This document shows positions 38,232 to 62,579 of a DNA stretch of 64,000 nucleotides, in pieces. Both the position numbers and the translations under genes were made by a program. This DNA is from an uncultured Clostridia bacterium (GTDB lineage: Bacteria; Bacillota; Clostridia; Christensenellales; Borkfalkiaceae), in contig CAMUBY010000007.1 in assembly GCA_947087265.1 (NCBI GenBank), forward strand, positions 2,758 through 66,757. The letters are read 5' to 3'. Numbering within the stretch: the first letter of the stretch is position 1; each line of letters begins with the position of its first letter. The notes under the pieces are model-generated. The model saw only the letters and a program-made list of their open reading frames with translations. It searched no databases and had not been told where the DNA came from.

Positions 38232-38717
38232 TTACATAATACTCGCTTTGATTTGTTTTAGTGCCGTTTTTTCAAGACGCGAAACCTGCGCCTGCGAAAT
38301 CCCGACTTCTGCGGAAATTTCCGTCTGCGTCTTTCCTTCGTAATAACGGAGAGTGAGAATTTTCCGCTCCCGCTCGGTGAGTCTGTGAATCGCCTCTTTG
38401 AGTGCGACGCGCTCCGTCCAGATTTCGTCCGACTGCGATTCGTCGCACAGTTGGTCGAGAAGTTGCAGCGTATCGCCCGATTTGTTGTATACGGGTTCGT
38501 ACAGAGAAACGGGGTCGGAAATCGCGTCTAACGCATAGACGACTTCGCGCTCCTGCACCTGCATTTCGTTTGCGATTTTCTGAATAGTCGCCTCTTCGTC
38601 GCGTTCTTCGATTGCCTCGCGGACTTTTAAAATTTTATACGCGGTATCTCGGATGGAACGGGAAACGCGCAGGGAATTCCCGTCCCGCAAAAAGCGTTTG
38701 ATTTCACCGAGTATCAT
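38232..38717 (-). CDS. sigG: 3' segment (residues ~96-256) of a split sporulation sigma factor SigG gene
   Basis: It begins MILGEIKRFLRDGNSLRVSRSIRD, the region 2.4 onward of SigF/SigG-type sigmas, and ends with the region 4.2 motif GISQAQVSRLEK. Regions 1.2-2.3 are missing here and are found at 47957..48253. Confidence 0.9.
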   Translation of the reverse strand: MILGEIKRFLRDGNSLRVSRSIRDTAYKILKVREAIEERDEEATIQKIANEMQVQEREVVYALDAISDPVSLYEPVYNKSGDTLQLLDQLCDESQSDEIWTERVALKEAIHRLTERERKILTLRYYEGKTQTEISAEVGISQAQVSRLEKTALKQIKASIM

Positions 38718-38741
38718 GGGAATAACGCTTGTATGTTGAAA
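38702..38741. repeat. Recombination junction (host half-site + GG core + element half-site with a 15-bp terminal inverted repeat)
   Basis: The plus strand reads tttcaccgagtatcatg GG aataac GCTTGTATGTTGAAA. The last 15 nt (38727-38741) are the exact reverse complement of 47949-47963. Confidence 0.8.
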
Positions 38742-38804
38742 ATTTATCCCGTTCAGTATATTTACTCTACCACAAAATCATAAAAAAATCAAGCATATAA
38801 ATAC

Positions 38805-38836
38805 GAAATACCCGCCGTCAGTGTCGGCGGATATTT
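38805..38836 (-). terminator. Terminator after the TIR-STAND gene, just inside the element end
   Basis: Stem cccgccg (38811-38817) pairs with cggcgg (38825-38830). A T-rich tract follows on the minus strand. It lies between the stop at 38876 and the att junction. Confidence 0.6.
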
Positions 38837-38875
38837 CATGTTCGGGAATTGACAGGCGTTTATAAAACACTTCGC

Positions 38876-41197
38876 TTATATGCCTATCGACTCCCAGCGT
38901 GGTATGGTTTTATCAAGTTCCAAAATATTTAATATCTCATACGTCTTTTTGGCATATTTGTCGGCTTCGGCCCGGTTGCCGAGTTTTGCGTTTGCAGTAG
39001 AAAGCATCCTGTACGACTGCGCGGCGTCGCGCTGCGTTTCGCCCACCGAGCCCGCAAAAAGTTCAAGCGCGGAGTGTGCGTAGTTGATTGCTTCGGAATA
39101 TTTTTTCATGCGTATACAGGCAAAAGCCATTGCGTTTATGCAACATGCCTTGGCAAAAGCGAACGAGCACTTTTCGCAAAATTCTATGCTTTTATTCAAG
39201 TAATCAAAACTTTCGTCAAATCTGTCGAGATGTGCAAGGTCAAGCCCGACGTTATAATGCGCCCATGCAAGTTCGGAATAGTTGTCGGGGAAGTGATTCG
39301 TGTCGATATCGACTTTTTTCATAAAATATCCGAGTGCTTTGTCGTATTCGGCATCCATCCAATAATACCAGCCGAACAGCGGCGAAAGCCAGGACGTGCG
39401 TTCCAACCTTTCCGATTCGGTAAAACCGTCTCCGCGTAAAATCCGCTCGGCTTCCGTCATATGTTTATACAGCCCTTCCCTATCCTCTTTGCACCTGTAC
39501 GCAGTACAAATCTCGATATGCGCTCCGTAGCGCTGCTTCGGACTTATCGAACCGCTAGCAAGATACTCGCCGAACACCCCGATAACTCTGTCGTGCCGCG
39601 AAAAATGCTGAAATACTTTTGCGGTCTCGGGCAGCCATTCCGCATACAATGCGGAAGAACGCGGCATAAATTTCAGCAAGCGTTCGGTAACGTACAGCAA
39701 CCATACGTTGCGGTCAAACGTTCCGAAACGCGACGACGGAAAATACATGGCCGCAAGCGAACGAACGAAATCCCCCGATACGTCGTCCTGAAAAGGCATT
39801 TTGGTCAAACATAAGTCTTGCACGATGGGGTGCAGCGATATGTAATCGGTAGCGTTGTTATGCAAAATCCAATTTTTACTGATGAGCGAGTCTATTTCGT
39901 CGTAGCTTTTCAGTTTGCACATATCGTAAAAATCCATTGCCTCCACCCCCGAAACGGGTACGAAAGCAAGGTTGTACAAAACGCGTTTTTCTTCTTCGCT
40001 CAGTCCGGCAAGATTAAACATATCGGTGATGACGTGCTTTGCTTTTTCTTGCCCGTCGTCTATGCTGTCGAGCACTTGTACCGTGCTTAGTTTCAAATGT
40101 TCGAGCATGTCGGCGGGGCGTATGCGCTTATCTTTCATCATAGTGGAAATAAGGCGGATAGAAAGCGTATGCCCCGAAAGCAGCCTAATCATTTCCATTA
40201 CGGTTTTTTTGTTTTGCCCGTCCAATTCACGCGGATAGCCCTTTGTAAAGAGTTCAAACAGTTCGTCGTCGTTGTCGATACAGTCGATTGCGTAATTATT
40301 GACGCTCCGCGCGATTCTCGTTGTAAAAATAATACTCATCGGCAGGGCGACAATCTCTTCAAAATACGGGTCGTTTTGCACGTTGTAGTCGTCTACGATA
40401 AGCAAATCGTCCTCTACCGCATTCTCGCGCAAAAATTCGTACTTGCGCTTATAATAAACGTTAACGTCCTCGTTGACGCCCTTGGAAAACCCGCTGATTC
40501 GCACGTTTGCGTCCGACACAAGCAAATCTTTCAAATCCGAGCCGTAAGTCGCCCACGAGACCGACCTGAATTCGTTGCGGAAATTCACCGCAAATTTGCG
40601 CACCGTTTGACTTTTGCCGATACCGCCCATACCGCTTACGAATATTTTTTTGTTGGTTTTCAGAAAATCGAGCAGCTCTGCCTGCTCGCGTTTTCTGCCC
40701 ACAAAATACGAAACGGGAGTGATTGCACTCGAAACAATGCGACGTTCGGCATCACTTGCCGTAAAATTGTTTAATACAAAATTAGATTTCGCATAAATTA
40801 CGCGTTCGCACAAATCATCGATTTTCTCGCCGATAGGCGGTTCTTTGCCGTTAATGCGGTGAAAGCGCCCCAAAAAATATTGCACCGTGTCGTTTACGGG
40901 ATAGTCATCCGTCTGAAAAATAATGAGTTCCATGCTCTTTTCCCTATAACGGTTAAACGCCGCATGAATTTCGTTTTTTACGTGCTCGGACTGCATGGAC
41001 CCCTTATTGATTATCAACAAAAATATAGACGCTTTGTTTAACGCCACCATGATGGCTTCATCGAAATTTCCTTCGCAATCACGGGGCGCATACCAGCACG
41101 ACACCCCTTTGCTTTCCAACTTTGTGCCGATTTCCGCCACAATTTCTTTCGCGGTGTTGGTATGGTACGAAATAAATACGTCTCTTTTGTCGTTCAT
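38876..41197 (-). CDS. TIR - NB-ARC/STAND P-loop NTPase - TPR protein (candidate anti-phage/abortive-infection sensor)
   Basis: The N-terminal TIR has DVFISYHTNTAKE...SEHVKNEI (conserved Glu). Walker A is VSGMGGIGKSQT and Walker B is LLIVDDYN. The C-terminal ~200 aa contain TPR-like repeats (AWAHYNVGLDLAHLDRFDESFDYLNKSIEF, AAQSYRMLSTANAKLGNRAEADKYAKK). An AGGAG RBS precedes the start. Confidence 0.85.
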   Translation of the reverse strand: MNDKRDVFISYHTNTAKEIVAEIGTKLESKGVSCWYAPRDCEGNFDEAIMVALNKASIFLLIINKGSMQSEHVKNEIHAAFNRYREKSMELIIFQTDDYPVNDTVQYFLGRFHRINGKEPPIGEKIDDLCERVIYAKSNFVLNNFTASDAERRIVSSAITPVSYFVGRKREQAELLDFLKTNKKIFVSGMGGIGKSQTVRKFAVNFRNEFRSVSWATYGSDLKDLLVSDANVRISGFSKGVNEDVNVYYKRKYEFLRENAVEDDLLIVDDYNVQNDPYFEEIVALPMSIIFTTRIARSVNNYAIDCIDNDDELFELFTKGYPRELDGQNKKTVMEMIRLLSGHTLSIRLISTMMKDKRIRPADMLEHLKLSTVQVLDSIDDGQEKAKHVITDMFNLAGLSEEEKRVLYNLAFVPVSGVEAMDFYDMCKLKSYDEIDSLISKNWILHNNATDYISLHPIVQDLCLTKMPFQDDVSGDFVRSLAAMYFPSSRFGTFDRNVWLLYVTERLLKFMPRSSALYAEWLPETAKVFQHFSRHDRVIGVFGEYLASGSISPKQRYGAHIEICTAYRCKEDREGLYKHMTEAERILRGDGFTESERLERTSWLSPLFGWYYWMDAEYDKALGYFMKKVDIDTNHFPDNYSELAWAHYNVGLDLAHLDRFDESFDYLNKSIEFCEKCSFAFAKACCINAMAFACIRMKKYSEAINYAHSALELFAGSVGETQRDAAQSYRMLSTANAKLGNRAEADKYAKKTYEILNILELDKTIPRWESIGI

Positions 41198-41242
41198 CTT
41201 TTGCTCTCCTCTGTTGATAACAATGCTTTTATTTGCGTTCTT

Positions 41243-41998
41243 TTACCGTTGTGGAAAAACCTCATGCAGTTGAAATTCCAAAACTTTTTTATACGGCGAA
41301 TCCTTTTCGTTTGCAAGCCATGCAAAAGCTGACGGAACGTTCAGACAAAATCCTTTTCCGAAGTATTCATACACTGCCCGATGCGACCCGCCGAACGGAC
41401 GGGCGGTCACCTTTTTCACATTCTCCGACACGGATAAGTGATGATTGCGGGAAGAATTTCCGTTCAGAAGTGATTTGCCGTTATCGAAAATCGGAGCCGA
41501 ACGATAATTCCCTTCCCCGTCCATAATAATGCCTAAATTATGAAAGTGCCTGTCTTCGTTGAGAATGATATAATCGAGCGTAAACACCTTTTTGAAATAA
41601 TCGAACAAATCAAGCCCTGTAACTTCCTTTACAAAACGCAGAACAAACGCAACTCTGTTCTGAATATCCGAATATCCCTTGATTGCTTCATATAACGGAA
41701 CGCCGGCAACGTTTGTATATAACCGTTCCAAAGTAATAAACGACTCGTCGGCGCCTAAAAAATTCTTACTCCGACAGCCCTTTCTGCCGTTAATTTTTCC
41801 CTGCTCGTAAATAACGTACTCGTTCGGGCGCAAATCGGAAAAATTCAGCAACTGCGAAACAAGATATTCCACTTCCCCTTCGCGCTCGACGTTATCTTCC
41901 TTATACCAATAGCCCTCGTGAAAATACTTTAACTGCGTTCCGTCGCTCGTACCTTGCGTATCGACAAGAAATTCTTCCCCGATTTTGATATCAAACAT
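41243..41998 (-). CDS. HipA C-terminal-like Ser/Thr kinase domain protein (stand-alone, HipT-like)
   Basis: DYIILNEDRHFHNLGII matches the HipA catalytic N-x-D-x-H-x-x-N loop and is followed by APIFDNG. At 251 aa it lacks the HipA N-terminal domain. It overlaps the upstream HTH gene by 8 nt. Confidence 0.7.
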   Translation of the reverse strand: MFDIKIGEEFLVDTQGTSDGTQLKYFHEGYWYKEDNVEREGEVEYLVSQLLNFSDLRPNEYVIYEQGKINGRKGCRSKNFLGADESFITLERLYTNVAGVPLYEAIKGYSDIQNRVAFVLRFVKEVTGLDLFDYFKKVFTLDYIILNEDRHFHNLGIIMDGEGNYRSAPIFDNGKSLLNGNSSRNHHLSVSENVKKVTARPFGGSHRAVYEYFGKGFCLNVPSAFAWLANEKDSPYKKVLEFQLHEVFPQR

Positions 41999-42569
41999 AT
42001 CTGTTCCTCGTTGCTACGTCCGCCCAAAATAATTGTTCCCCGTCAAATTGAAACCAAAGAAAATCATTATAGGAAACCCCGTGCGTCTTTTTTACAATCG
42101 ATAACGGGTCGTAATGGGCAATTCCGAGTTTTTGCAGAATCTGTGCCAATCCGTCGCGGTTTTCTTCCCAGCACCGCCGTTTCAAAATTTCGGAAAGCGC
42201 CACAATGTCCATTTTTTCTTGATTAAAAATCTGCTTTACAGGGTGCTGAACAAACCTCTTGACGCGCACGACCGAACCGCTCACATAAAACTCGGATACA
42301 GGCTCGTCTTTCCAATAACAAATAGCGTGTAACCCGTCCCAGCGTTTCAGATAGTCGGGGCGGACGTCGCTTTCTTTGATTGCAAATTCCAAGGACAATG
42401 CCTCTGCAAGTTTTTCAAGCGTCGCCAAGTTCGGATTCACCTGTCCGCTTTCGATTCTTCCGATTGTAGATTGCGGAATACCGCAAAGCCTTCCAAGTTC
42501 GGCTTGGGACATTCTCCGCTTTTTCCGTTCCCGAATCATTTGATTTAGTAAAATGCTTTTCGTTGCCAT
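41991..42569 (-). CDS. XRE-family HTH protein with an extra ~125-aa C-terminal domain (candidate HipB/HipS-like partner)
   Basis: The HTH is MSQAELGRLCGIPQSTIGRIESGQVNPNLATLEKLAEAL. An uncharacterised C-terminal domain follows. It is translationally coupled to the kinase gene. Confidence 0.7.
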   Translation of the reverse strand: MATKSILLNQMIRERKKRRMSQAELGRLCGIPQSTIGRIESGQVNPNLATLEKLAEALSLEFAIKESDVRPDYLKRWDGLHAICYWKDEPVSEFYVSGSVVRVKRFVQHPVKQIFNQEKMDIVALSEILKRRCWEENRDGLAQILQKLGIAHYDPLSIVKKTHGVSYNDFLWFQFDGEQLFWADVATRNRYV

Positions 42570-42645
42570 ATTGCTTCACCATTATCATAATAGCACAAAT
42601 GCTATTATTTGTCAAATGGTTTGCAAAAAATAATATCTTAAAAAG

Positions 42646-44124
42646 TTAATTTTGGTTCAATACAATTTGCTCGTATTGCGTCTTATTCAGAACAACTTTC
42701 ATACGACCCGACGTAAGCACTACGCGCTCGACAAGTTCCCGAATAATATTTTGTTTTTCAACGTCCGTCATGTTCCGCCAAGTGTCGGGAAGCGTTCTGA
42801 GCATTCGTTCCTGCTCTTCGATTTTTCTCGCAATCGTCTGTTTTTCCTGTTCCTCCGCCATATCCCGCTCTATGCGTTTTCTGTCTTCGTTGAGAGTCCC
42901 CGCCTGGTCGAGCAATTTTTCATCGCCCAACTTTTTGTAAGCGTGAATTAGCCGATTGTATTCGATGTCTAATGCGTCGATTCTTTTTTGTAACCCTGCA
43001 ATAATATCTTCTCCGTTCATAACGCGGTATTTTAACTCATCGCGGTATTTCACGGCAAATTCCATAATCGTGCCGATAACCGCCTGCTCCACTTCTTCCG
43101 CATCGTAAACGATATTCGGACAATTAGAATCTTTCACCAAATAATGCTTGGTGGAGGGATACCTGGAATAACACAAAATTTTCAACGTTTGTTTCTTGCC
43201 TCTCCCCCATTTCATGTAACGCATTTTTGCGCCGCAGTTACCGCAATAAACGAGTGAGGATAAAAGATAATGCGAATCTCCGCGTTTAGCCTTTCGTTTT
43301 TGTAAAATTTCCTGTGCTTCCTTAAAAGTTTCTTCATCGATAAGCGGCGCGTGTTTGCCCTGATACTGTTCTCCGCGGAAAGTGATTTCACCGAGATACG
43401 TGCGGTTTTTTAGGATACCGAAAACAACCACGTCGCTGGAAAGCCCCAACCGTTCTGCAATTTGCCTCGGAGAATATTCGTTTGTATTATACAGTTCAAA
43501 AATCTTTCTGACTATCGGCGCTTTTTCGGCGTCGGGAATCAGATTATTTTCAGCCTTTGAATAAATATACCCGAACGGAGCAATACCTCCCCCTTTCCAA
43601 AACCCGTCTAACGCACGCTGCCTTCTGCCGAGCGTCAGTTTTGATACGATTGCGTCGTGGTCAAACTCCGCGAAAATGGACAAAATCGAAATCAAAATTC
43701 CGTAAGTTTGTTTGCTTCGGGAATCGATACTGTTCTTCAATGCCAGATACTCGCAACCCGCGCTGACGCACTTTTCTTTCAAAAAACGCAGAATCAGCAT
43801 TTGCGTTCTGCCGATACGGTCAAGGGTATAGGTAATAACCATCTTTATTTTACCCTTTTTCATGAGTTCCAACATTTTCTGATAAGCGGGTCTGTTTTCA
43901 TTCATTCCCGTATAGCCGTCGTCGATAAATACCACGGGATTACTCATTTCATAAGCCGTGCAGTATTTTTCGAGCGCAGCGTATTGAACGTCTAAACCGT
44001 AACCGTCTTTGGCTTGCGAATCCGTGGAAACTCTCAAATACAAAGCCGTAATGTTATCTAATTCATCGCCGATTTCGTCATAAATCGGATATGAAAATTT
44101 GATTTGTTTACTTGTTTCTTTCAT
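42646..44124 (-). CDS. Large serine recombinase (resolvase catalytic domain + recombinase domain + zinc ribbon + coiled coil)
   Basis: The catalytic ALYLRVSTDSQ motif is present. The recombinase domain shows GGIAPFGYIY. The zinc ribbon is CGNCGAKM...CPN. The C-terminal coiled coil includes RIDALDIEYNRLIHAYKKLGD. The architecture matches SpoIVCA/SprA/phage integrases. Confidence 0.9.
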   Translation of the reverse strand: MKETSKQIKFSYPIYDEIGDELDNITALYLRVSTDSQAKDGYGLDVQYAALEKYCTAYEMSNPVVFIDDGYTGMNENRPAYQKMLELMKKGKIKMVITYTLDRIGRTQMLILRFLKEKCVSAGCEYLALKNSIDSRSKQTYGILISILSIFAEFDHDAIVSKLTLGRRQRALDGFWKGGGIAPFGYIYSKAENNLIPDAEKAPIVRKIFELYNTNEYSPRQIAERLGLSSDVVVFGILKNRTYLGEITFRGEQYQGKHAPLIDEETFKEAQEILQKRKAKRGDSHYLLSSLVYCGNCGAKMRYMKWGRGKKQTLKILCYSRYPSTKHYLVKDSNCPNIVYDAEEVEQAVIGTIMEFAVKYRDELKYRVMNGEDIIAGLQKRIDALDIEYNRLIHAYKKLGDEKLLDQAGTLNEDRKRIERDMAEEQEKQTIARKIEEQERMLRTLPDTWRNMTDVEKQNIIRELVERVVLTSGRMKVVLNKTQYEQIVLNQN

Positions 44125-44266
44125 TTTTTCTCGGCTTCGTTTGCTTGTTTCTGTAATACACTCTGTTTACGATTTCGCTGACAAGCGGGCTCACGCAAAT
44201 ATACTTCTTCACGTCCTCCGAAGTAAGTTCTTCTTCCCCCATATATACCGTTATTTTTTCTACCAT
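44108..44266 (-). CDS. Unlisted 52-aa ORF overlapping the recombinase start (candidate accessory/directionality factor or leader)
   Basis: Read by hand: GAGGGGGGAG RBS, then ATG (44266), encoding MVEKITVYMGEEELTSEDVKKYICVSPLVSEIVNRVYYRNKQTKPRKNERNK. Its stop overlaps the recombinase ATG region by 17 nt. It is below the 60-aa ORF-track cutoff. Confidence 0.4.
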   Translation of the reverse strand: MVEKITVYMGEEELTSEDVKKYICVSPLVSEIVNRVYYRNKQTKPRKNERNK

Positions 44267-44324
44267 TTACTCCCCCCTCTTTCTTTCTTCTCTATTTTGA
44301 TTAAAAATAAACATTCGGGAAAGC

Positions 44325-44362
44325 AATAAAAAAGCGGCTACGGTGAACCGTAGCCGCTTTTG
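44325..44362 (-). terminator. Strong rho-independent terminator separating the AT-rich module from the recombinase module
   Basis: A 13-bp stem, aaagcggctacgg (44331-44343) pairing with ccgtagccgcttt (44348-44360), has loop tgaa. A T-run follows on the minus strand. Confidence 0.85.
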
Positions 44363-44381
44363 ATATTTTTTTAACCGACTT

Positions 44382-45086
44382 CTATTTGTCAAATTTTAAG
44401 ATGTCGTCCATAACATACAAAAATTTTCCGTTCCCTAATGAATACTCTTCATATCTAAAAACGAAAATATCATATTTTTCACTTTCGATTTTCGCCTGAC
44501 ACTGTATCAAGTTTATTCCGGTATCGGGGGCGAGAGCGATTTGCTGTTTATAATTAATAGAAAAATCAGGATATGTTTCCGACACAAAACTGCTGTCTGT
44601 TTCAAAATCTTTATAGTCGTATTTTTGATTAACGACTATCATTAACTCTAAACTATAATAGACTTCTATATTCGCCACGTTTACGTTTAGCGAATAATAT
44701 AAATCATCTCCGCTTACGGAATCGTAATATCTTTTAACCGTTGAAACGTTCTCTTCCGAAAGATTTAACATCAGATTTTTGAGCGCGCCCGACAATTCCG
44801 CAAAATCCGACTCGACCTGAACGAAATTGCTTTCGTCATAATAATTGTCATCCAAATTATTATTTGCAAACGGGACTAACTCAATCAGCAATACCGCAGC
44901 CACGGCGCAAGCCACCACTGCCGACGGAATCGCCCACACGAACTTGTTTCCGTTCCTCTTCGACCGGGAGCGGTTCTCTTCCTCAACAAAAAGTTCCAAA
45001 CGCTGTAAAAGTTCGTTGTCTTTGTCGGTCTGAATGGATTGTAAGTCCTTTTCTGATTCTTTTTTTAAGAATTTCTTTGTATTCAT
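44382..45086 (-). CDS. Single-pass membrane protein (possible anti-sigma/sensor partner of the ECF sigma)
   Basis: Charged N-terminal ~45 aa, one TM helix (FVWAIPSAVVACAVAAVLLIELVPF) and an extracytoplasmic C-terminal domain. It is the last gene of the XRE-sigma-peptidase string. No recognisable zinc anti-sigma motif is present. Confidence 0.55.
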   Translation of the reverse strand: MNTKKFLKKESEKDLQSIQTDKDNELLQRLELFVEEENRSRSKRNGNKFVWAIPSAVVACAVAAVLLIELVPFANNNLDDNYYDESNFVQVESDFAELSGALKNLMLNLSEENVSTVKRYYDSVSGDDLYYSLNVNVANIEVYYSLELMIVVNQKYDYKDFETDSSFVSETYPDFSINYKQQIALAPDTGINLIQCQAKIESEKYDIFVFRYEEYSLGNGKFLYVMDDILKFDK

Positions 45087-45090
45087 AATC

Positions 45091-45888
45091 CTAATAAATA
45101 TTTATTGCATATGCGTCGTCGATGTTTGTTTTGTAATCGATATCATAATATCCGTTGGATTTAAATGGATAACCCGATGCAACCGTTATGTATTGATAGA
45201 AAGCGCTTCCAGACGAACTTAATTCGTAACTGGTTTCTCTGTAACCGAACCCCACCATCACGTGATTGCCGGTAGATTCATAATAATAGATTGAATCAGT
45301 GTTTTCATCTGTATAAATATCAGCTACATTATATCCGCCGCAGAACAGAACGATAGGTTGGTTATATTCCATAAATGCTTTCGCCAAAGCATAATCGAAT
45401 TTTTTATTTTTCATAACGGAAGTAAAACTGATGCTCTTACCCATTCTGTTGCAGTAAGCAATCATTCCGTTCGTAAATTCTCTGACTGTTGTTCCGTCGT
45501 CGTCCGTCCCCATATCATTGTATAACTGCCTGACCACTTCGGTAACGGCATCGCTTGCGCTGTTATAAATAAACTGACCTTGGAACACAAATCCCGAAGT
45601 ATGGTTGGGAATTAAATTTTCATCGTATCTGTCGAAATAACCGATGATATTCGCGCCCGCCGTACAAGCGCAGTCGCCTAAGCCGACACTCTCGGTATAA
45701 TTCGGATGTTTGAGTACCATTCTGTACTCGTTTTCGTCTTTATTTTCATAATTGACCCTAACGGTTGATGCCGCATAAGGGGACATTCCGTCGTCGCTGT
45801 AAGTACTTTCTTGCACGGCAATTCCGCCCATGAAGAAATTTGCACCGCCCATAATTGCCATTAAGGCAACAGCCAAAAATTGTTTCAT
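45091..45888 (-). CDS. Secreted papain-fold cysteine peptidase-like protein
   Basis: A signal-peptide-like N-terminus (MKQFLAVALMAIMGGANFF) is present. The candidate nucleophile is in GDCACTAGANIIGYFDRY and the candidate His in TGNHVMVGFGY. The start is moved to the ATG at 45888, 6 nt after GAGGTG. Confidence 0.55.
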   Translation of the reverse strand: MKQFLAVALMAIMGGANFFMGGIAVQESTYSDDGMSPYAASTVRVNYENKDENEYRMVLKHPNYTESVGLGDCACTAGANIIGYFDRYDENLIPNHTSGFVFQGQFIYNSASDAVTEVVRQLYNDMGTDDDGTTVREFTNGMIAYCNRMGKSISFTSVMKNKKFDYALAKAFMEYNQPIVLFCGGYNVADIYTDENTDSIYYYESTGNHVMVGFGYRETSYELSSSGSAFYQYITVASGYPFKSNGYYDIDYKTNIDDAYAINIY

Positions 45889-45942
45889 ACAATTCACCTC
45901 ATTTGTTTGTTATATTTATAGACGGAAAAATGAGGCGAATTG

Positions 45943-46443
45943 TTACAAATATTTTTTCAAAGTTTTATACGCTCTGCTTACTTTTGTGCGAATGCTTATG
46001 TAACTTATGTTGAATTCGTTTGCCAATTCTTTCAGGCTGTAACCTTCCCAATAATGTAAATATAAAATCTCCTGCGTTAAGTCATCTAAATTCAATAGCG
46101 CTTTTTTCACATCGATATTTATGATTGTATTTTCTATATCGAATTTTGCAGCCACTATTTCATTCAATTCGATTTCTTCATGCTTTCCCCTCAAAATATC
46201 AATTGTATAATTATCTGCTAACTTATATAACCACGTCGTAGGATACTCAACATAATCCGGGGTTTTCATTTCTAATAATTTCAGGAATATATCATGCGCA
46301 ATATCTTCAGGATTGATTAGTTTTCCAAAACGCCTTTGAATATGTGCCTTCAATTTCAAATAGTAGTCTTCGTAAATAGATTTTACTGCATATTTGTTAT
46401 ATTTAATTTTCCCGATTAAGTAATTAAACTTTTGTGCATCCAT
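45943..46443 (-). CDS. ECF-type sigma-70 family sigma factor
   Basis: Region 2 shows PEDIAHDIFLKLLE and region 4 shows LHYWEGYSLKELANEFNISYISIRTKVSRAYKTLKK. It is 166 aa. Confidence 0.8.
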   Translation of the reverse strand: MDAQKFNYLIGKIKYNKYAVKSIYEDYYLKLKAHIQRRFGKLINPEDIAHDIFLKLLEMKTPDYVEYPTTWLYKLADNYTIDILRGKHEEIELNEIVAAKFDIENTIINIDVKKALLNLDDLTQEILYLHYWEGYSLKELANEFNISYISIRTKVSRAYKTLKKYL

Positions 46444-46459
46444 AATACTATTAAAAAAT

Positions 46460-46801
46460 TCAGGTATTTAAGTAACTATCCACATGAATCATAACTGCTT
46501 CCTTTTGTCTCTTATTCAGTATCCGAAACTTATCTAAAAGCTGTTTTGTTTCCCCTGTTAAAACAGTGACTTCTTCTTCGTTACACAACAACTCCGCAAC
46601 AGTTATATCAAATGCGTAGCATAATTTTTCAATCGCTTCAAGGCTGGGCGTGTAATTTCTCGCCGAATACCAGTTACGGATACACGCTTCGGTTAATTCC
46701 GCTTTTTGCGCCAAATCATAAATAGACATGCCTTTGGCTATCATGAGTTCTTTGATTTTTTGCTTCACTTTTATAATTAAAACACTATTATTTGTAGTCA
46801 T
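46460..46801 (-). CDS. XRE-family HTH transcriptional regulator
   Basis: The HTH is MSIYDLAQKAELTEACIRNWYSARNYTPSLEAIEKLCYAFDITVAELL. Confidence 0.8.
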   Translation of the reverse strand: MTTNNSVLIIKVKQKIKELMIAKGMSIYDLAQKAELTEACIRNWYSARNYTPSLEAIEKLCYAFDITVAELLCNEEEVTVLTGETKQLLDKFRILNKRQKEAVMIHVDSYLNT

Positions 46802-47040
46802 CGTATTTTAATTATATCGCATATATTAAGAAAAAATAAGGAGTTATCGTTTTGTATTTTAATAATTATGCCTATGATATCATATCATATTTCAAAGCTA
46901 CAATCAAGAGAAAACCAACTCGGTTATTTTAACGCGTTTATTTCCCGTATACTATCCATGAAGCAGATAAAAACAAAAAAGCCATACAACTAACGTAAGG
47001 CTTTCTTAACTTCACAACAAGTTTGATATTAAAATAACCT

Positions 47041-47208
47041 TCATAATTTATGCCCCATCCTGCCGTCGCCAACGCTACTTTCGCCTTTGCCTAAACAATT
47101 CTCTTCACTGCACCCTTCCGTGTGCGAATCACAGCCACAAGTTTCGTCGCAGTATTCATCGCAATCTTTTTCAGGCTCATTGTCGTCTGCACAGAAAATA
47201 ATATGCAT
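47041..47208 (-). CDS. Unlisted 55-aa acidic, cysteine-rich small ORF
   Basis: Read by hand: AAGGAGG RBS 7 nt before the ATG (47208), encoding MHIIFCADDNEPEKDCDEYCDETCGCDSHTEGCSEENCLGKGESSVGDGRMGHKL. It has 7 Cys and many Asp/Glu. It is below the ORF-track size cutoff. Confidence 0.45.
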   Translation of the reverse strand: MHIIFCADDNEPEKDCDEYCDETCGCDSHTEGCSEENCLGKGESSVGDGRMGHKL

Positions 47209-47388
47209 TTTAATACCTCCTTGGTTTTTTTGCTTTACAAATTAAATATTAAAAATAATCTCTTGCATATTCACTTTTTTCAGTATTAAAGACGAGACAA
47301 ACAACGAAAATGTTACAAAAAAAGCAAAATTTTTTATCGATACAAATTTTACTGCTGGAGCATCGGTTTAGCGCCGAATGCAAAATAA

Positions 47389-47928
47389 TTATCTGATTTC
47401 CACTTCAATTTCGGTAATAATCTTTTGCTTTGACTTTTTGTACGGAGTAAGTCCGCAAACGGAAAGCAACTTTTCCCAGCGGGAAATTCCGTTCCGCCGC
47501 ATGATTGTCTGAATACAACAAATAAGTTTTCTATTCCTTCTTGCATTAAAGTCGGTTTTAGAAAACGGCTTCAAACGGTTATATTCCGCAATAAATTCTT
47601 CTAACGAAGCCCCTTTCGCGCATTTATGTATGCTTGTTCCTTGTGCATATTCCGTCGGATAAAACTGCTTCATCCAAGCGGTATAAGTCGTTTGGAAACG
47701 GTAGTCGAATATTTCAATATACGGAAGCCCGTTTTTCCCGAATTCCTTTGAGCTTGGCAGCCGACCGTTCTTTACAAGAAACTCGTCGATTGCCTTGTTA
47801 ATTCGTTCTTCCGTCCATTTGCACCGCGGATGAACACGGATATCAGAATTTTGTTTTTTTGCCGATTTGGGTTCGTTTTCTGCATCTGATTGCCCGATTT
47901 TCGCCGATAATGCCTGTTTTCTAGCCAT
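47389..47928 (-). CDS. 179-aa basic protein with two helical repeats, the first gene inside the element (candidate DNA-binding/recombination directionality factor)
   Basis: An AAGGAG RBS lies 7 nt before the ATG at 47928, which is only 21 nt inside the element terminal repeat. Two related segments are WTEERINKAIDEFLVKNGRLPSSKEF and SLEEFIAEYNRLKPFSKTDF...ISRWEKLLSVCGL. There is no room for its own promoter. Confidence 0.6.
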   Translation of the reverse strand: MARKQALSAKIGQSDAENEPKSAKKQNSDIRVHPRCKWTEERINKAIDEFLVKNGRLPSSKEFGKNGLPYIEIFDYRFQTTYTAWMKQFYPTEYAQGTSIHKCAKGASLEEFIAEYNRLKPFSKTDFNARRNRKLICCIQTIMRRNGISRWEKLLSVCGLTPYKKSKQKIITEIEVEIR

Positions 47929-47948
47929 AAACCGCTCCTTTTGAAGGG

Positions 47949-47988
47949 TTTCAACATACAAGCATATTTGGCACGGCATAGGTTGAAA
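47949..47988. repeat. Recombination junction (element half-site with a 15-bp terminal inverted repeat + GG core + host half-site)
   Basis: The plus strand reads TTTCAACATACAAGC atattt GG cacggcataggttgaaa. The first 15 nt are the exact reverse complement of 38727-38741. Confidence 0.8.
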
Positions 47989-48253
47989 ACTTTACGTTGA
48001 AATCGAGGTTAAAGTTGTCGATTGCCTTGATAAGCCCCACGCAGCCCGCCTGAAATACGTCGTCCGCGTTAGAATTCTTCGCCCAGAACCGTTTGACGAG
48101 CGAGAGCACCAACCGCATATTTCCGACGATAAACGCTTCGCGCGCTTTTTCGTCGCCCTTTTTCAGCCGCCTCATCAGTTCGTCGTTTTCCTTTGCCGAG
48201 AGCTTGGGAAGCCCCGACGTATCCACTCCGCAAATGACTACTTTCTGTAACAT
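47951..48253 (-). CDS. sigG: 5' segment (residues 1-95) of the split sporulation sigma factor SigG gene, plus 5 element-encoded codons and a stop
   Basis: MLQKVVICGVDTSGLPKL (SigG-type N-terminus), NMRLVLSLVKRF (region 2.1) and DDVFQAGCVGLIKAIDNFN...KFSTYAVP (regions 2.2-2.3) are followed by NMLVC-stop. A GGAGG RBS precedes the start. Confidence 0.9.
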   Translation of the reverse strand: MLQKVVICGVDTSGLPKLSAKENDELMRRLKKGDEKAREAFIVGNMRLVLSLVKRFWAKNSNADDVFQAGCVGLIKAIDNFNLDFNVKFSTYAVPNMLVC

Positions 48254-48399
48254 ACACTCTTACCTCCTATGTACACGCCTTAGATTAAGAGTTTTTGCAA
48301 AGGACGGAAATTTATGCGGAACCACAGAGTACCATTCGGAGGCATAAAAAATTTGTATTATTTTGCCGAAACGCCTCTCTTTTGCGCGAAAAAACCAGC

Positions 48400-48447
48400 A
48401 AATAAAAACAACCGCCGCCGAAAGTTTCGGCGGCGGTTGTTTCTTTT
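48400..48447 (-). terminator. Strong terminator between the lipoprotein/vWA operon and sigG
   Basis: Stem caaccgccgccg (48408-48419) pairs with cggcggcggttg (48427-48438). T-runs are present on both strands. Confidence 0.85.
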
Positions 48448-48453
48448 ATCCGA

Positions 48454-50772
48454 TTAAGATTTTTTCAGTTCGTAAAGTTTGGAATATCTGTCGGTTAACA
48501 TCAGTTTTTTGTCTACGGTTGCGGAGAAAGTTACGCCGAGTTCGTCGCCCGAAATTTTCTCGTCAAGAACAATCTTTCCCGAGGCAACGCTGTATGCGTA
48601 AACGGTTTCTGCGGGTTCCCCGTCCTTTACGGTATACACGATTGCAACCCTACCGCTCGTTGCGCCTTCGGATTCAGGCGTAAACGTCACCGAATACTGA
48701 TTCTGCGCGTTATCCTTCACGGAATAAGTGCCGCTCAATAATCCCGCGAAATCAATCTCTTTTACGGTAAAGGTAATCGTCGTTGAAACGGTAGGCTTTA
48801 CCGTAGAAGTCATTTTTACGCTGTATGTGCCTGCCGCCGATGCCGTGAACTTCCAATATTTCAATGTGGGGTCCGCCGCAATTTCGTCCGCCGCGGCGTC
48901 CGCGTCGGGCGGTGTGAGCGTGACGTTTGCCGTAACGCCCGAACTCAACTCGGCCGTATAAGCGCCGTTTGCGTACTGGTTGGGTTCACAGCTGAAATAC
49001 ACGGTTTCGCCGACGCCAATCGTCTTTTGCGCCGCAGTCGTTTCAAACTTGGTGAGCGGATTATACACGCGGGGCGTAAGCGAGGTAGGGTCTGAACCCG
49101 TGACGTCGAAATAAATTGTCTTCGTGGTCTTCGCCGTTGTAAAGACAAGTTTCATCGACCCGCCGCGCCGCGCTTCCACCAAACGGGTATTGCCGCCCAT
49201 ACCGAATACGTATAAATCATCGCCGTAGAACCAATTATGGCTGTTTTCTTTCTTTTTCGTGCCGTCGGTAACGAACAGCGGGTCGGTAGTAAAATCCGAA
49301 CCCTCGGGCAAAATATTTTTGAACGTAAGCGTTATCTGATTGGTATGCCCGCTGCTGCCTTCGTTGCCGCGATTGAATTTGATGGTGTCGCCGTCGTTTA
49401 TCTCTTTTCCGTTATAGAAAATCTGATAACTTTGCACCTCGCCCGTCTTTTCATCTTCGGTGATGAAGGGATTTTTTTCGGTACGCTTGCCCGCAACCTG
49501 CTGACAGGTAATTCTCCATTGGAAATCAGGCGATTCCTGGGTGGGAGACGTAACGCCCTCTGAATCGGTAACGAAATGGGAATACTTATTTTCCTCGAAA
49601 TCGCTTGAGAACCATGCTTTCTGCAATACGGTAGCCGATTCTATGAAGTAGGAATTACCGAGCTTAAATTCTACGTCCACCGTGAAGTAATAGTGTCTGT
49701 TCGCGCCGCCCGGATACAGATAACCGAACGAGAAGAAGAACTGCTGTTGAGAAAGTTCCGCGCCCTCCCGATAATCCTTGTTGGGATTGGTTTTGCCGAT
49801 ATCGTACATATCCGTTACAAGTTTCTCGATACCGTAAGCCGCTTTGTCGGAATCGAAATACCAGGGTCTGTAAAAAACGCCCTCCATCATTTCCGTACTC
49901 TTACGCGGGGATTCGTATTGCGAACCGTCGTAAAAATAAACAACGTCGATTTTATCATCCTTCATACTCGTGTGAAATTCACTGATGTAGCCGACATCGT
50001 CCTCTTTCACATAGGTGTAATTATCTCCGAAGCGGTAAGTATAATTGATGTTCGTCCACCCTTTATTGATGTAAGACGACGCCGTAGAGGTTCCGCTCAC
50101 CACATTGCTCTTGAAGAAATTGCCGAGAGAAAGCGCGTTTTGTACGGAGCTGAGATTCACCCCCGCAACCGTAACGGTGTAGGAAGCGCTGACCGCACCC
50201 TTTGAAACGGAAACGGTATAATTGCCCTCCGCCGTAAATACGTCGTCATACGCCGAACCGTATTCGGAAACCACTTCGAATCTGAGTGAGCGGAGCGAGG
50301 TAATTTCTTCATCAAATTCCTGCTTCTGCGCATTCTCGTACGTTCCCGTAACTTTGAGCCCTTCGTAAGAAATGCTTTCTCCGATTTGATAGTTGAGTTT
50401 CGCGTTTTCGGTATTTAACTTGAGCGCTTTCAACACGTTGTTGAAGTCGTTTACCATAATATAGTAAACTTCTTTCTTGCCCTGATAACTGACCGTTACC
50501 GCATAACTCCCGAGCGCGTTCATATCGAGCGAACTTTCGGGCTTCACGGTCGCCTCCGCCGTTACGTCCACCTTTTCGCCCTTACCGTTTTGCAGATAGA
50601 CTTTGAAACTTTCACCCGTCGTGAACTCGTCGCCGATATAAAACGCCGTTTTCTGTCCTTCGATGATAAGGCGCTCGCCCGATTCGTCACCGCACGCCAC
50701 AGGCAACACGCAGCCCAAACAAATAATGAAAGTAAGAGCAAAAGTCAATAATAATTTTTTAAGATTTTTCAT
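48454..50772 (-). CDS. Large lipoprotein with repeated beta-rich (Ig-like) modules
   Basis: The signal peptide with lipobox is MKNLKKLLLTFALTFIICLGCVLPVACG. Repeated Thr/Val/Tyr-rich beta segments (YTVSVS..SYTVTVAG, GTYSVKMTST) are present. It is the last gene of the MoxR/vWA operon. Confidence 0.6.
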   Translation of the reverse strand: MKNLKKLLLTFALTFIICLGCVLPVACGDESGERLIIEGQKTAFYIGDEFTTGESFKVYLQNGKGEKVDVTAEATVKPESSLDMNALGSYAVTVSYQGKKEVYYIMVNDFNNVLKALKLNTENAKLNYQIGESISYEGLKVTGTYENAQKQEFDEEITSLRSLRFEVVSEYGSAYDDVFTAEGNYTVSVSKGAVSASYTVTVAGVNLSSVQNALSLGNFFKSNVVSGTSTASSYINKGWTNINYTYRFGDNYTYVKEDDVGYISEFHTSMKDDKIDVVYFYDGSQYESPRKSTEMMEGVFYRPWYFDSDKAAYGIEKLVTDMYDIGKTNPNKDYREGAELSQQQFFFSFGYLYPGGANRHYYFTVDVEFKLGNSYFIESATVLQKAWFSSDFEENKYSHFVTDSEGVTSPTQESPDFQWRITCQQVAGKRTEKNPFITEDEKTGEVQSYQIFYNGKEINDGDTIKFNRGNEGSSGHTNQITLTFKNILPEGSDFTTDPLFVTDGTKKKENSHNWFYGDDLYVFGMGGNTRLVEARRGGSMKLVFTTAKTTKTIYFDVTGSDPTSLTPRVYNPLTKFETTAAQKTIGVGETVYFSCEPNQYANGAYTAELSSGVTANVTLTPPDADAAADEIAADPTLKYWKFTASAAGTYSVKMTSTVKPTVSTTITFTVKEIDFAGLLSGTYSVKDNAQNQYSVTFTPESEGATSGRVAIVYTVKDGEPAETVYAYSVASGKIVLDEKISGDELGVTFSATVDKKLMLTDRYSKLYELKKS

Positions 50773-50796
50773 AATACCTCCGTCAACAAACAGACG

Positions 50797-52380: not shown

Positions 52381-52393
52381 CTCTATTCCCTCC

Positions 52394-57068: not shown

Positions 57069-57949
57069 TTCAACACCCCCGATTGGGCAAGGTTTTCAAA
57101 GAAAATCTGTTCCAGTTGCTGTGCGTCCGATACAAGAAGATAGCCCGCCTCACGCGCGTTGCAGTAGTTTCGGATTCTGTTCTGTACGAACTCGACCGCC
57201 TCTTTGTAAGCGTTCAGAATATCGCGGTTGATGTTGCGCCGATAGTAGCGCTCAGGGTGTTCGGAATCGAAGAAGTGGTTTTTTCCGCGCGCCGAAGGGT
57301 TGAGTTCCTCTTCGGAAAGCACCTGCACGCAAAGCAAATCGCGTTTCTTTTCGGCAAGATAGTCGATTGCCCGTTCGTAATCGTTATCCGTTAAAAAGTC
57401 GGAAATGATAACGGAAAGCCCGTCGCCGTAGCCGACCTTTGCAGGCAGCATTCCTTCCGAGATGAAGCAGTCTCCGTTGAATTGAATCTGGTTGAGTTTT
57501 CCGATTTCGTTGTAAAACCGTTCTCTTCCCACCATACCGTCAATGAGAGTCGTCACCTCGCTCTCCTGAATGGTATAAACGGACACCCTGTCGAGTTCGC
57601 ATACGGAAAGATAGGCGAACGTTGCCGCCATTTCCAAGGCGCGCGCCCCCTTCTTACTCTTGCCGAAATCCATCGAACGGCTGGCATCGATATAGATACG
57701 CGTATGCAGCTGCCGCTCGTCGAGATACAGTTTCAGATACAGCGTTTCAAAGCGCGCGTAAGCATTCCAGTCAATCTTCGTAATATCGTCGCCCGGAATA
57801 TAATTGCGGTAGTCTGCAAATTCGCACGACGAACCGAACGTCTTACTCTGGTGGTTGCCGCCGAACAGACCTGCTATGTTGTTTTTCAGAAGCGTCTGCA
57901 ACCGCTCCACGCGTTGCAGAAACGCCTCGTTTATCACGTATTCAGCCAT
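57065..57949 (-). CDS. DUF58 domain protein (MoxR/vWA system component)
   Basis: YRNYIPGDDITKIDWNAYARFETLYLKLY is typical of DUF58. It lies between MoxR and the vWA genes. Confidence 0.8.
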   Translation of the reverse strand: MAEYVINEAFLQRVERLQTLLKNNIAGLFGGNHQSKTFGSSCEFADYRNYIPGDDITKIDWNAYARFETLYLKLYLDERQLHTRIYIDASRSMDFGKSKKGARALEMAATFAYLSVCELDRVSVYTIQESEVTTLIDGMVGRERFYNEIGKLNQIQFNGDCFISEGMLPAKVGYGDGLSVIISDFLTDNDYERAIDYLAEKKRDLLCVQVLSEEELNPSARGKNHFFDSEHPERYYRRNINRDILNAYKEAVEFVQNRIRNYCNAREAGYLLVSDAQQLEQIFFENLAQSGVLK

Positions 57950-57951
57950 GA

Positions 57952-60410: not shown

Positions 60411-62579
60411 TTACTTTTGTGCCTGCCGCATGGTGAGGGAAATACGGTTTTTCTTCTCGTCCACTTCCTTCACCCAGACGGTAACGACGTCGCCTACCGC
60501 GAGCACTTCGGAGGGGTGACGGATAAATTTATCGCAAATCTGCGAGATATGAACGAGTCCGTCCTGATGCACGCCGATATCGACGAACGCGCCGAAATCG
60601 ATAACGTTACGCACCGTACCTTTGAGTTCCATGCCCGGTTTCAGGTCTTTGATTTCGAGAACGTCGGTACGGAGTACGGGCGGCGGCAGTTCGTCGCGCG
60701 GGTCGCGCCCCGGTTTTCTGAGTTCGTCGGCAATATCGAACAGCGTAGGAAGTCCGATACCGCATTCCTTCGCCGCTTTTTCTTCGCCGTACGCGTGGAG
60801 ATTGCGCATCATGTTCATAAGCCGCCCCGCCTTCACGTCCTCCATCGTATAACCGCAGAAGGAGAGCACTTTTTCCGCCGCCTCGTAAGACTCGGGGTGG
60901 ACGGACGTGTTATCGAGTACCTGTTTGCTTTCGGGCACGCGCAAAAAGCCCGCACACTGCTCGAATGCCTTTGCGCCGAGTTTGGGCACTTTCAGCACTT
61001 CCTGACGGGAAGCGAACGCGCCCTTTTCTTCGCGGTATTTGACGATGTTCTGCGCGACGGCGGTATTCAGCCCCGAAACGCGCGCGAGGAGCGGCACGGA
61101 AGCCGTGTTCAAATCAACGCCCACCGCGTTCACGCAATCTTCCACCACGCCGTCCAGCGTTTCGGAAAGCCGTTTTTCGGGCATATCGTGCTGATACTGC
61201 CCCACACCGATAGACTTCGGGTCAATTTTCACGAGTTCGGCAAGAGGGTCCTGCAAGCGGCGCGCAATGGAAACCGCCGAACGCAGGTTGACGTCGTATT
61301 CGGGAAATTCCTGCGCGGCAAGTTTGGACGCCGAATAGACGGACGCGCCGGCTTCGTTGACGATGGCATACGAAACGCCCGAACCCGCGCCGAGCGAGCC
61401 GATTAACTCCACGGTCATCTGTTCGGTTTCGCGGCTTGCCGTGCCGTTGCCGATTGCAATGTGCTGCACTTTGTGTTTTTTGATGAGCACGGAAAGTTTA
61501 TCGATGCACTCTTTTTTCTGCCGCTCGCCGTAAGTGGGATAGACGACCGTCGTATCGAGCACCTTGCCCGTACCGTCCACCACCGCCACTTTACAACCCA
61601 TGCGGTAGCCGGGGTCGAGCCCCATGGTAACAAAGCCTTTTACGGGCGGCTGCATGAGCAGCGGACGCAGATTGAGCGCAAACTGCCCGATAGCACCCTC
61701 GTTGGCGCTGTCGGTGAGCGCCGTTCTGATTTCGCGCTCCACGGAGGGGAAAATCAAACGGTCGTATGCGTCCTGTGCACACGTGCGCACAAATTCCGTC
61801 GAGGCGCACGGCTCTTTCAGCGTATAGCGGTAAATGAGGTCGAGCGCGACGTCGCGGTTCATATCGATGGAAACTTTGAGAATTTCCTCCCGTTCGCCAC
61901 GGTTCATGGCAAGTACCTGATGCCCCTGCACCTTGCTCACCGCCGATACAAACGCGTAATAGTTACGGTAAACGGTGTCTTCCGGCTCTTTCTTCGCGCT
62001 CGTCGAGAGAATGTCCGCACGGCTCATAAACAGTTCGCGCAACGCCTTTCTGATTTCCGCGTCGTTGGAAATGACTTCCGCAATAATATCCCCCGCGCCC
62101 GCAAGCGCTTCCTCGGCGGTATTCACTCCCTTTTCTTCGTCGACGTATTTTGCGGCTTCTTCGAGCGGCACGGGGCAATCCTTTTCCTGCGCGTAGAGAA
62201 TTTCCGCAAGCGGCTCCAACCCCTTTTCGCGCGCAACCGTTGCACGCGTGCGGCGCTTTTGCTTGTAAGGGCGGTATAAGTCCTCCACTTCGGCAAGCGT
62301 TGCCGCCTCGTCTATTTTGAGGGCAAGTTCTTCCGTGAGTTTGCCCTGGTTTTCAATCGATTTTTTCACTTCCTGTTTGCGTTCTTCGAGTCCGCGCAGG
62401 TAGGCAAGACGGTCGGCGATTTCGCGGATGGTCTGGTCGTCCGTCGTGCCGTGCATCTCCTTGCGGTAACGCGCGATGAAGGGAACGGTGTTGCCCTCGT
62501 CGAGAAGGGTGACGATATTCTGCACGTGCTCCTCGTTCTTGTTGAATTCCTGCGATAATGTTTGTACAATCGTTTGCAT
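60411..62579 (-). CDS. tex: Tex-like transcription accessory protein (YqgF/HhH/S1 domains)
   Basis: 722 aa. The N-terminus is IVTLLDEGNTVPFIARYRKE. The central YqgF-like region shows GLDPGYRMGCKVAVVD. The C-terminal S1 domain shows GTVRNVIDFGAFVDIG. Confidence 0.9.
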   Translation of the reverse strand: MQTIVQTLSQEFNKNEEHVQNIVTLLDEGNTVPFIARYRKEMHGTTDDQTIREIADRLAYLRGLEERKQEVKKSIENQGKLTEELALKIDEAATLAEVEDLYRPYKQKRRTRATVAREKGLEPLAEILYAQEKDCPVPLEEAAKYVDEEKGVNTAEEALAGAGDIIAEVISNDAEIRKALRELFMSRADILSTSAKKEPEDTVYRNYYAFVSAVSKVQGHQVLAMNRGEREEILKVSIDMNRDVALDLIYRYTLKEPCASTEFVRTCAQDAYDRLIFPSVEREIRTALTDSANEGAIGQFALNLRPLLMQPPVKGFVTMGLDPGYRMGCKVAVVDGTGKVLDTTVVYPTYGERQKKECIDKLSVLIKKHKVQHIAIGNGTASRETEQMTVELIGSLGAGSGVSYAIVNEAGASVYSASKLAAQEFPEYDVNLRSAVSIARRLQDPLAELVKIDPKSIGVGQYQHDMPEKRLSETLDGVVEDCVNAVGVDLNTASVPLLARVSGLNTAVAQNIVKYREEKGAFASRQEVLKVPKLGAKAFEQCAGFLRVPESKQVLDNTSVHPESYEAAEKVLSFCGYTMEDVKAGRLMNMMRNLHAYGEEKAAKECGIGLPTLFDIADELRKPGRDPRDELPPPVLRTDVLEIKDLKPGMELKGTVRNVIDFGAFVDIGVHQDGLVHISQICDKFIRHPSEVLAVGDVVTVWVKEVDEKKNRISLTMRQAQK

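Follow-up and report, generated by a model that had tools for sequence, protein, structure and literature searches.

We analysed a stretch of 64,000 nucleotides from an uncultured Clostridia bacterium (contig CAMUBY010000007.1; the whole stretch is called the window below), in which the gene of the sporulation sigma factor SigG is cut after codon 95 by a 9,251-bp element at positions 38720–47970 on the minus strand. This element is not a lone skin-like relic, but a member of a large, actively transferring family, for which codon 95 of sigG is the dedicated bacterial attachment site (attB). The members of this previously undescribed family are driven by a large serine recombinase (LSR), and they occur in conjugative, mobilisable or cargo-island forms; no report of an element in sigG (spoIIIG) was found in the open-access papers and bioRxiv preprints. 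The data as a whole are best explained by capture of the sigG promoter by the first gene of the element, orf179, which would couple the excision of the element to sporulation, and we assign to this explanation a probability of about 45%.

The halves of sigG and their junctions with the element are listed below. The boundaries of the element, as they had been given in the earlier note, proved exact when the junctions and the open reading frames (ORFs) were read.

47969..48253, minus strand: sigG 5′ half, native codons 1–95; the ORF runs into the element, with its stop at 47951
38232..38718, minus strand: sigG 3′ half, codons 96–256 and the third base of codon 95
47946..47995, minus strand: attL, with the crossover CC at 47970–47971 and the element arm AAATATGCTTGTATGTTGAAA
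38695..38744, minus strand: attR, with the crossover CC at 38719–38720 and the element arm TTTCAACATACAAGCGTTATT

The upstream part is read as a 100-codon ORF (47951..48253, minus strand), which consists of SigG residues 1–95, five foreign codons (NMLVC) and a stop, while the downstream part is read as a 161-codon ORF (38232..38717, minus strand), which opens exactly at the native Met96. When the halves were fused in silico at the CC common to both junctions (47970–47971 and 38719–38720), the sequence GTG CCC ATG ATA was restored in frame and gave a SigG protein of 256 aa, which is the length of intact homologues at 94% identity. The reconstituted protein scored 374.7 bits on the NCBIfam SigG equivalog NF006071 (cut-off 372; SigF, 276.8 bits). 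The point of the split falls in the coding sequence of the highly conserved region 2.4, inside a single structural domain, and SigG as a whole is highly conserved (85–94% identity) across many relatives. The G+C content over much of the element (44,000–47,999) is 0.30–0.41, compared with 0.44–0.52 in the flanks.

The order of genes in the relative L118 is spoIIGA, sigE, sigG 5′ half, element, sigG 3′ half and a ylmC-like PRC gene, and this spoIIGA-sigE-sigG-ylmC context indicates that the interrupted gene is the real, canonical sigG rather than a paralogue. Together with the NF006071 score it bears out the earlier claim that the host gene encodes the canonical forespore sigma factor. It is very improbable that the loss is covered by redundancy, either through a second intact sigG in the carrier genomes or through the two fragments acting as a split sigma factor. 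Such an explanation could appeal to the extent of the genome that is visible (64 kb, on an 82.6-kb source contig), and to the fact that the 3′ ORF happens to open at the native Met96. On the other hand, the canonical locus of L118 is the interrupted one, Met96 is not preceded by a Shine-Dalgarno sequence and has a terminator just upstream of attR, and the split lies within one domain. The window comes from a metagenome-assembled genome, which raises the question of an artefact or a chimeric contig. However, attL and attR sequences 100% identical to those of the window occur in separate assemblies of ENA (ERZ14230264 and ERZ14230262), which rules out an assembly chimera, and dozens of unrelated assemblies show this architecture again, so that this explanation is effectively refuted.

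The joined ends of the element form an attP site with perfect 15-bp inverted repeats, TTTCAACATACAAGC-GTTATT-CC-AAATAT-GCTTGTATGTTGAAA, in which the arms are spaced by 6+2+6 bases around the central CC. This layout is typical of a serine integrase, and the arms are the longest (top) inverted repeat in the region. The attL architecture of the window was also found in the relatives L046, L118 and L016. The relatives of the LSR at 52–72% identity are counted in hundreds, and a scan of one genome per species gave about 40 close ones. In 20 species-representative genomes a related LSR lies upstream of a sigG 3′ half starting at the same codon, and one further species genome shows the 5′ side of a sigG insertion, which gives at least 21 species-level genomes in all. 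A scan of metagenomes with the LSR added 13 contigs with the same sigG 3′ junction, and no new 5′ junctions. In all 20 of the species-genome 3′ junctions read, the arm consensus GTTTCnnnnTACAAnnnnnATT abuts the base before ATGAT, and in 19 of them the element arm ends with CC. The exception is L033 (L033:9887-10393), from a distant host with a B. subtilis-like SigG 3′ half of 49% identity, where the junction reads ...GCTTCA/ATGATA and not ...ATTCC/NATGAT; judging from this junction, the crossover dinucleotide in the L033 subclade may differ.

The sister subclades of the LSR, which are 56–59% identical and have kept an orf52-like gene, are not located in sigG. In one group of them (L011, L019, L021, L024, L026, L030) the element adjoins the 3′ end of a convergent asd-like (aspartate-semialdehyde dehydrogenase-like) gene, after GCTATAAGTCGATTAA; this label was given by eye from the N-terminal sequence. 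In another group (L022, L029, L039) a different site, marked by CGATAATCGACTTATAG, is occupied. The small gene orf52 precedes the LSR gene in practically all relatives, also in those which integrate at other sites.

Several members of the family differ from the window in their detail. In L046 (L046:10001-10404), a complete small sigG element of about 4.5 kb, a large part of the interior of the LSR gene is missing and the sequence contains no Ns, and both sigG halves are still intact ORFs, while L020 has the same junction and a full-length LSR; by its sequence L046 looks like a locked-in, decaying copy. L117 (L117:1-12039) has the LSR together with the sigG 3′ half, but the 10 kb upstream contain housekeeping-type genes (lspA, a pseudouridine synthase gene, der, plsY) and lack a sigG 5′ half. 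This locus may represent a very large element, captured chromosomal genes, or a rearrangement. Many assemblies (L003–L008, L010, L012, L014) break 0.5–2 kb upstream of the LSR gene, and hence the 5′ junction of large elements is hidden. These breaks are consistent with one element sequence being common to several species in a sample, which would mislead the assembly program. The SigG N-terminal fragment P0242, which is at least 90% identical to that of the window, ends ...STYAVP-IRLTRS*, that is at the same codon, but with a different element end, while P0243, P0244 and P0249, which belong to the same ≥90% cluster as the window and P0242, are intact, read-through SigG proteins.

The comparison of the elements with their hosts showed that the family has spread recently. 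In at least seven host backgrounds, LSR genes with a nucleotide identity of 99.9–100% adjoin sigG halves which share only 75–85%. Among the listed members of one cluster of fusion proteins (119 in all), none of the 291 residues of the element part differ, while there are 6–21 differences in the first 96 SigG residues. The occurrence of near-identical LSRs next to diverged sigG halves indicates that the elements are spreading between species now, although the window element itself was seen in one host only. The relative L017 encodes a VirD4 coupling protein, a VirB4-like ATPase and pilins of a type IV secretion system (T4SS), which identify it as a conjugative element, and also TnpV. The cargo varies, as it includes defence genes in the window, fucose/FGGY catabolism in L118, and, in the P0402 group, either the glycoside hydrolases GH43/GH10 with an ABC transporter or a rhamnosidase. 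P0402 occurs in 120 collection blocks, and the coverage of its contigs reaches 469x, which shows that the carriers can be very abundant and can dominate samples; a deeply covered example is contig NODE_719 of ERZ4883045 (469x).

The explanation that involves promoter capture is based mainly on the gene located next to the 5′ junction and on the region upstream of sigG, where the following features were placed.

48289..48317, minus strand: putative forespore-type (sigmaF/sigmaG-like) sigG promoter, GCATA, 14 nt, GCAAAAACTC
47389..47928, minus strand: orf179, junction gene and first gene of the element; its ATG, with AAGGAG upstream, is 22 nt past the stop of the truncated sigG ORF
44108..44266, minus strand: orf52, small conserved ORF of 52 codons, directly upstream of the LSR gene and overlapping its start
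42646..44124, minus strand: LSR gene, 492 aa, with the catalytic RVS motif intact

A gene of the orf179 family is the first element gene in each of the four loci with a visible 5′ junction (the window, L016, L046 and L118), where it starts 35–50 nt past the crossover, on the sigG strand, with a strong ribosome-binding site (AAGGAG or GGAGG) upstream. The family was kept at the junction despite the fact that the LSRs of L016, L046 and L118 are 57–62% identical to that of the window and the cargo is unrelated. In L118 the gene is fused in frame to SigG(1–95). An exhaustive HMMER search gave 276 clusters of the family, whose proteins are typically of about 180–210 aa and start with MTRKQAL, and among the best 150 of the family representatives five more in-frame fusions of SigG(1–95) to a junction protein were found. 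The SigG N-terminus of these five hosts is only 46–64% identical to that of the window, which indicates that the junction arrangement reaches well beyond the clade. No strong terminator was found between sigG and orf179, and tblastn did not find the orf179 family in the sister LSR elements at other sites. On the strength of this conserved position, orf179 is a candidate sporulation-coupled excision factor.

The orf179 protein of the window had no convincing Pfam or PHROG match, a word-indexed protein search with it returned the query alone, and a scan of metagenomes with the alignment of the junction gene gave no confirmed relative. A repeat of about 60 residues from this family is also present in giant multi-repeat proteins (P0253, P0254, P0256, P0314), with up to 15 copies in 1,303 aa; one of the proteins has 4,529 aa.

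The motif of the putative sigG promoter, GCATAAATTT...TTGCAAAnACTCTTA, is conserved upstream of the intact sigG in the relative L199, and G[CT]ATA, followed about 17 nt on by a CAxA-type box, was found upstream of sigG in L046 and L118. In Clostridioides difficile sigG has a forespore-type promoter and is also transcribed by read-through of spoIIGA (PMC7438776). Because the approximately 40 nt from the crossover to the start of the junction gene are occupied by the putative LSR-binding arm, the sigG promoter upstream would be the only one to transcribe the integrated orf179. In loci where sigE precedes sigG, the junction gene could also be reached by transcripts that run on from the spoIIGA-sigE operon.

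We infer the following course of events, from promoter capture and sporulation-triggered excision to its compartment and the fate of the circle. Integration splits sigG and at the same time sets orf179 immediately downstream of the sigG 5′ half. When sporulation turns on the sigG promoter, the product of the junction gene would trigger attL × attR recombination by the LSR, whether it is itself a directionality factor or turns on the orf52-LSR operon. Excision would then rejoin sigG in the chromosome destined for the spore, and would also disconnect the junction gene from its promoter, while the excised circle would become enclosed in the non-dividing forespore. Integration by LSRs between attP and attB needs the integrase only. 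After germination the circle could be reintegrated by the LSR alone, or it could be lost and the element later re-acquired horizontally. A sporulating cell without SigG is expected to be lost, and hence an element located in sigG should be under strong selection to excise at sporulation. The most complete version of this scheme is a germ-line developmental DNA switch, in which sigmaF-driven excision confined to the forespore restores sigG and turns the trigger off, and the circle reintegrates at germination; this version, taken with all of its parts, is unlikely.

Several observations weigh against the coupling of excision to sporulation by orf179. The exact reconstituted SigG was absent from 15 billion proteins, although the organism is covered only about 2x, and neither the excised circle (attP) nor the restored attB of the window strain was found. 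The intact state of the sigG halves was considered as evidence of selection for restoration and rejected, as the insertions are too recent: with horizontal spread of this age, intact halves are uninformative about selection. The profile of the orf179 family had no match in the PDB, 10 of 30 members matched weakly the homing-endonuclease-associated (HNH) repeat PF18780, and a single-sequence AlphaFold model of the protein had a pLDDT (predicted local distance difference test) of 44, unusable for a search. It is orf52, and not orf179, that tracks the LSR across all subclades, and the LSR of L046 is internally deleted. The sigmaF/sigmaG assignment of the promoter was made by eye, using the B. subtilis and C. 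difficile consensus (PMC7438776). Excision by TndX, the LSR of a conjugative transposon, is reported to need the recombinase alone (Wang & Mullany 2000, cited in PMC4430133). Finally, related cultured Christensenellaceae (Christensenella) are described as non-spore-forming (PMC11536998).

Many of these observations would be expected if the insertion were a plain insertional knock-out by a promiscuous element, with carriers that are asporogenous, and only rare spontaneous excisants that sporulate. Under this explanation, the target would be chosen because about 40 bp of region 2.4 hardly vary among many Clostridia and so allow a broad host range, sigG would be dispensable for vegetative growth in the gut, the junction gene would have some other function in the element, and the excisants would stem from the basal excision which any integrative element needs for its transfer. 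The clear and recent horizontal spread agrees with it, as does the adaptive cargo of glycoside hydrolases, sugar catabolism and defence genes. TndX of Tn5397 likewise targets a ubiquitous conserved domain (Fic) and needs no directionality factor, some insertions at least are dead ends, as the decayed LSR of L046 shows, and the non-sporulating cultured relatives and the failure to find attB or attP forms point in the same direction. However, a knock-out leaves unexplained why a co-oriented orf179-family gene is present at every visible junction, and only in the elements that target sigG. The sigG mutants of B. subtilis and C. difficile are asporogenous (PMC7438776), and a sporulating cell without SigG would be expected to die together with an element that has no escape route. 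The conservation of SigG, in turn, suggests selection for sporulation in this clade. We regard the knock-out as the main rival, which is possible but less probable than promoter capture.

The junction gene behind the sigG promoter bears on the three outcomes distinguished in the earlier note, namely (i) reversible excision with re-integration of the circle, (ii) progressive loss of the element through spores, leaving a mixed population, and (iii) a simple sporulation knock-out. It favours (i) or (ii) over (iii), and proves neither of them. In a form of outcome (ii), sporulation-coupled excision in the forespore or in the predivisional cell would have no return, so that spores would be element-free and populations mixed, and the element would persist in vegetative lineages and through conjugative or mobilised re-acquisition. 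The coexistence of interrupted (window, P0242) and intact (P0243, P0244, P0249) sigG in one ≥90% cluster agrees with this possibility, as do the strong evidence of frequent horizontal acquisition and the lack of recognisable replication or partition genes in the window element by Pfam and PHROG searches. The window element, however, has no conjugation genes of its own, and its re-acquisition would have to rely on helper elements. Moreover, a non-dividing forespore cannot dilute the circle, and because LSR integration is normally cofactor-free, reintegration would be the default outcome. As occupied sites are also abundant and recurrent across many samples, excision without return appears quite unlikely.

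The element with its proposed promoter capture can be compared with the known elements that interrupt sporulation genes, which are skin in sigK (B. subtilis and C. difficile), SPbeta in spsM, phi3T in kamA, vfbin in spoVFB, vrin in spoVR and gin in gerE. In each case an LSR element splits a sporulation coding sequence, precise attL × attR recombination restores the ORF, and the element, like gin, need not be a phage. The timing of excision in the skin-type elements depends on a small factor expressed from a sporulation promoter (SprB, Skr, or the directionality factor of C. difficile skin), while the proposed trigger orf179 has no promoter of its own and would borrow that of the interrupted gene. 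The sigG elements also differ in that they have recently been transferring between species, while the skin-type elements are vertically inherited relics. Another difference is in the cell in which the host gene is expressed. The skin-type elements interrupt genes that are active in the mother cell, which is terminally differentiated, and they excise only there. The earlier note had stated that the known intervening elements reside in mother-cell genes, and every published one that was found fits this statement, although the literature says 'almost all ... mother cell-specific genes' (PMC6957869). SigG is forespore-specific in B. subtilis and C. difficile (PMC7438776), and the host gene of the window is the orthologue of this germ-line sigma factor. 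Since the published elements are located in mother-cell genes, while sigG is a forespore gene, the logic of excision restricted to the mother cell cannot apply here, as the earlier note had argued.

The family also resembles Tn5397 with its recombinase TndX, and Tn4451 with TnpX, where an LSR is the sole integrase, the crossover comprises two bases, and the target is inside a conserved coding sequence. Further similarities are the broad Clostridia host range, a Tn916-type module of a helix-turn-helix (HTH) protein and a small sigma factor, and the T4SS genes in the relative L017. In contrast to these transposons, the target of the sigG family is a developmental sigma-factor gene, the window element is devoid of conjugation genes, and a conserved junction gene is putatively linked to the host promoter. 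Besides, TndX needs no directionality factor, while the sigG family is always accompanied by orf52, and its sigG-targeting members also by the orf179 family.

A further comparison is with active lysogeny. Listeria phage phi10403S in comK and the Streptococcus pyogenes island SpyCIM1 in mutL excise reversibly, so that the gene works when it is needed and the element is kept. The comK case is mentioned in PMC6957869. Like these, the sigG element interrupts a gene in the inherited chromosome. However, the cases of active lysogeny are phages or phage-like islands which respond to an intracellular niche or to the growth phase, and not to a developmental programme, and their reversibility has been shown, while that of the sigG element is purely hypothetical.

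The sporulation intervening elements characterised so far rely on a disposable mother cell, and the sigG family breaks this rule. If the switch is real, it would be a new reversible rearrangement in an inherited chromosome, timed by the capture of a host promoter, and conjugative and cargo elements would live in an essential forespore gene of many gut Clostridia without the loss of spores. Alternatively, spreading elements would switch off sporulation, and hence transmission and persistence, in abundant gut Clostridia. Genome-based prediction of sporulation would count a split sigG among the missing genes or the pseudogenes, and hence the finding matters for such predictions. It also bears on the movement of glycan-utilisation and defence cargo through the gut microbiota, and it may be of interest for the engineering of serine integrases, as the LSR clade is new, its att sites are defined, and two candidates for a directionality factor accompany it.

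All genes of the 9,251-bp element are on the sigG strand. Those not listed above, with the terminators, are the following.

Between orf179 and the HTH regulator, minus strand: possible ORF of 55 codons
46460..46801, minus strand: Cro/CI-type HTH regulator, 113 aa; Pfam HTH_26 and PHROG transcriptional repressor families
45943..46443, minus strand: ECF-like sigma factor, 166 aa; Pfam Sigma70_r2 and r4, PHROG sigma factor families
44382..45897, minus strand: two ORFs of 268 aa and 234 aa; no Pfam, PHROG or PADLOC match
44330–44361: terminator hairpin after the 268-aa and 234-aa ORFs
41243..42569, minus strand: cargo pair of an HTH protein (192 aa) and a HipA-like kinase (251 aa); Pfam HTH_3 and HipA_C, PADLOC candidate defence family PDC-M03A
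38876..41197, minus strand: TIR-STAND(NB-ARC)-TPR protein, 773 aa, likely defence cargo
38803–38839: terminator between the TIR-STAND-TPR gene and attR

The LSR of the window is full length, with the Resolvase, Recombinase and Zn_ribbon_recom domains of Pfam, and its catalytic domain resembles TnpX and the TP901-1 integrase. The gene orf52, located directly upstream, is by this position a candidate directionality factor or regulator. A strong sigma-70-like promoter was predicted between the LSR gene and the HTH/HipA-like pair. The promoter region upstream of orf52-LSR, inspected by eye, was of no clear type, and a sigma-70 scan gave matches at the level of chance. The pair formed by the ECF-like sigma factor and the Cro/CI-type HTH regulator (45943–46801) recalls the orf7/orf9 regulatory module of Tn916, and sigma factors have been noted in the Tn916, Tn1549 and Tn5397 elements (PMC7438776). 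The ECF-like sigma factor of the element could also help to control excision.

No phage structural genes were found in the window element, and its PHROG matches were to regulators only. A phage origin was considered and rejected, as the best LSR relative in IMG/VR is 35% identical and the element arm had no IMG/VR match. Pfam and PHROG searches of the element also gave no conjugation genes (coupling protein, VirB4-type ATPase or relaxase), and because it is without a conjugation module, the window element can be no more than mobilisable, or else it represents one of the family's cargo islands.

The nearest intact SigG, P0002 (94% identical), was tried as the empty site of the window strain and rejected, as its sigG context is non-syntenic, which means that P0002 belongs to another species. 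Exact look-ups of the proteins flanking the element found no record. The region of the window upstream of sigG (48454–59088) is also arranged differently than in L199, which is the closest species with an intact sigG: the gene of Tex (60411..62579) lies about 12 kb from sigG, while in L199 it is directly upstream. This interval consists mostly of large ORFs (772, 527, 949, 643, 294 and 378 aa), several of them unannotated, and contains at 48406–48442 a terminator with a perfect 17-bp stem.

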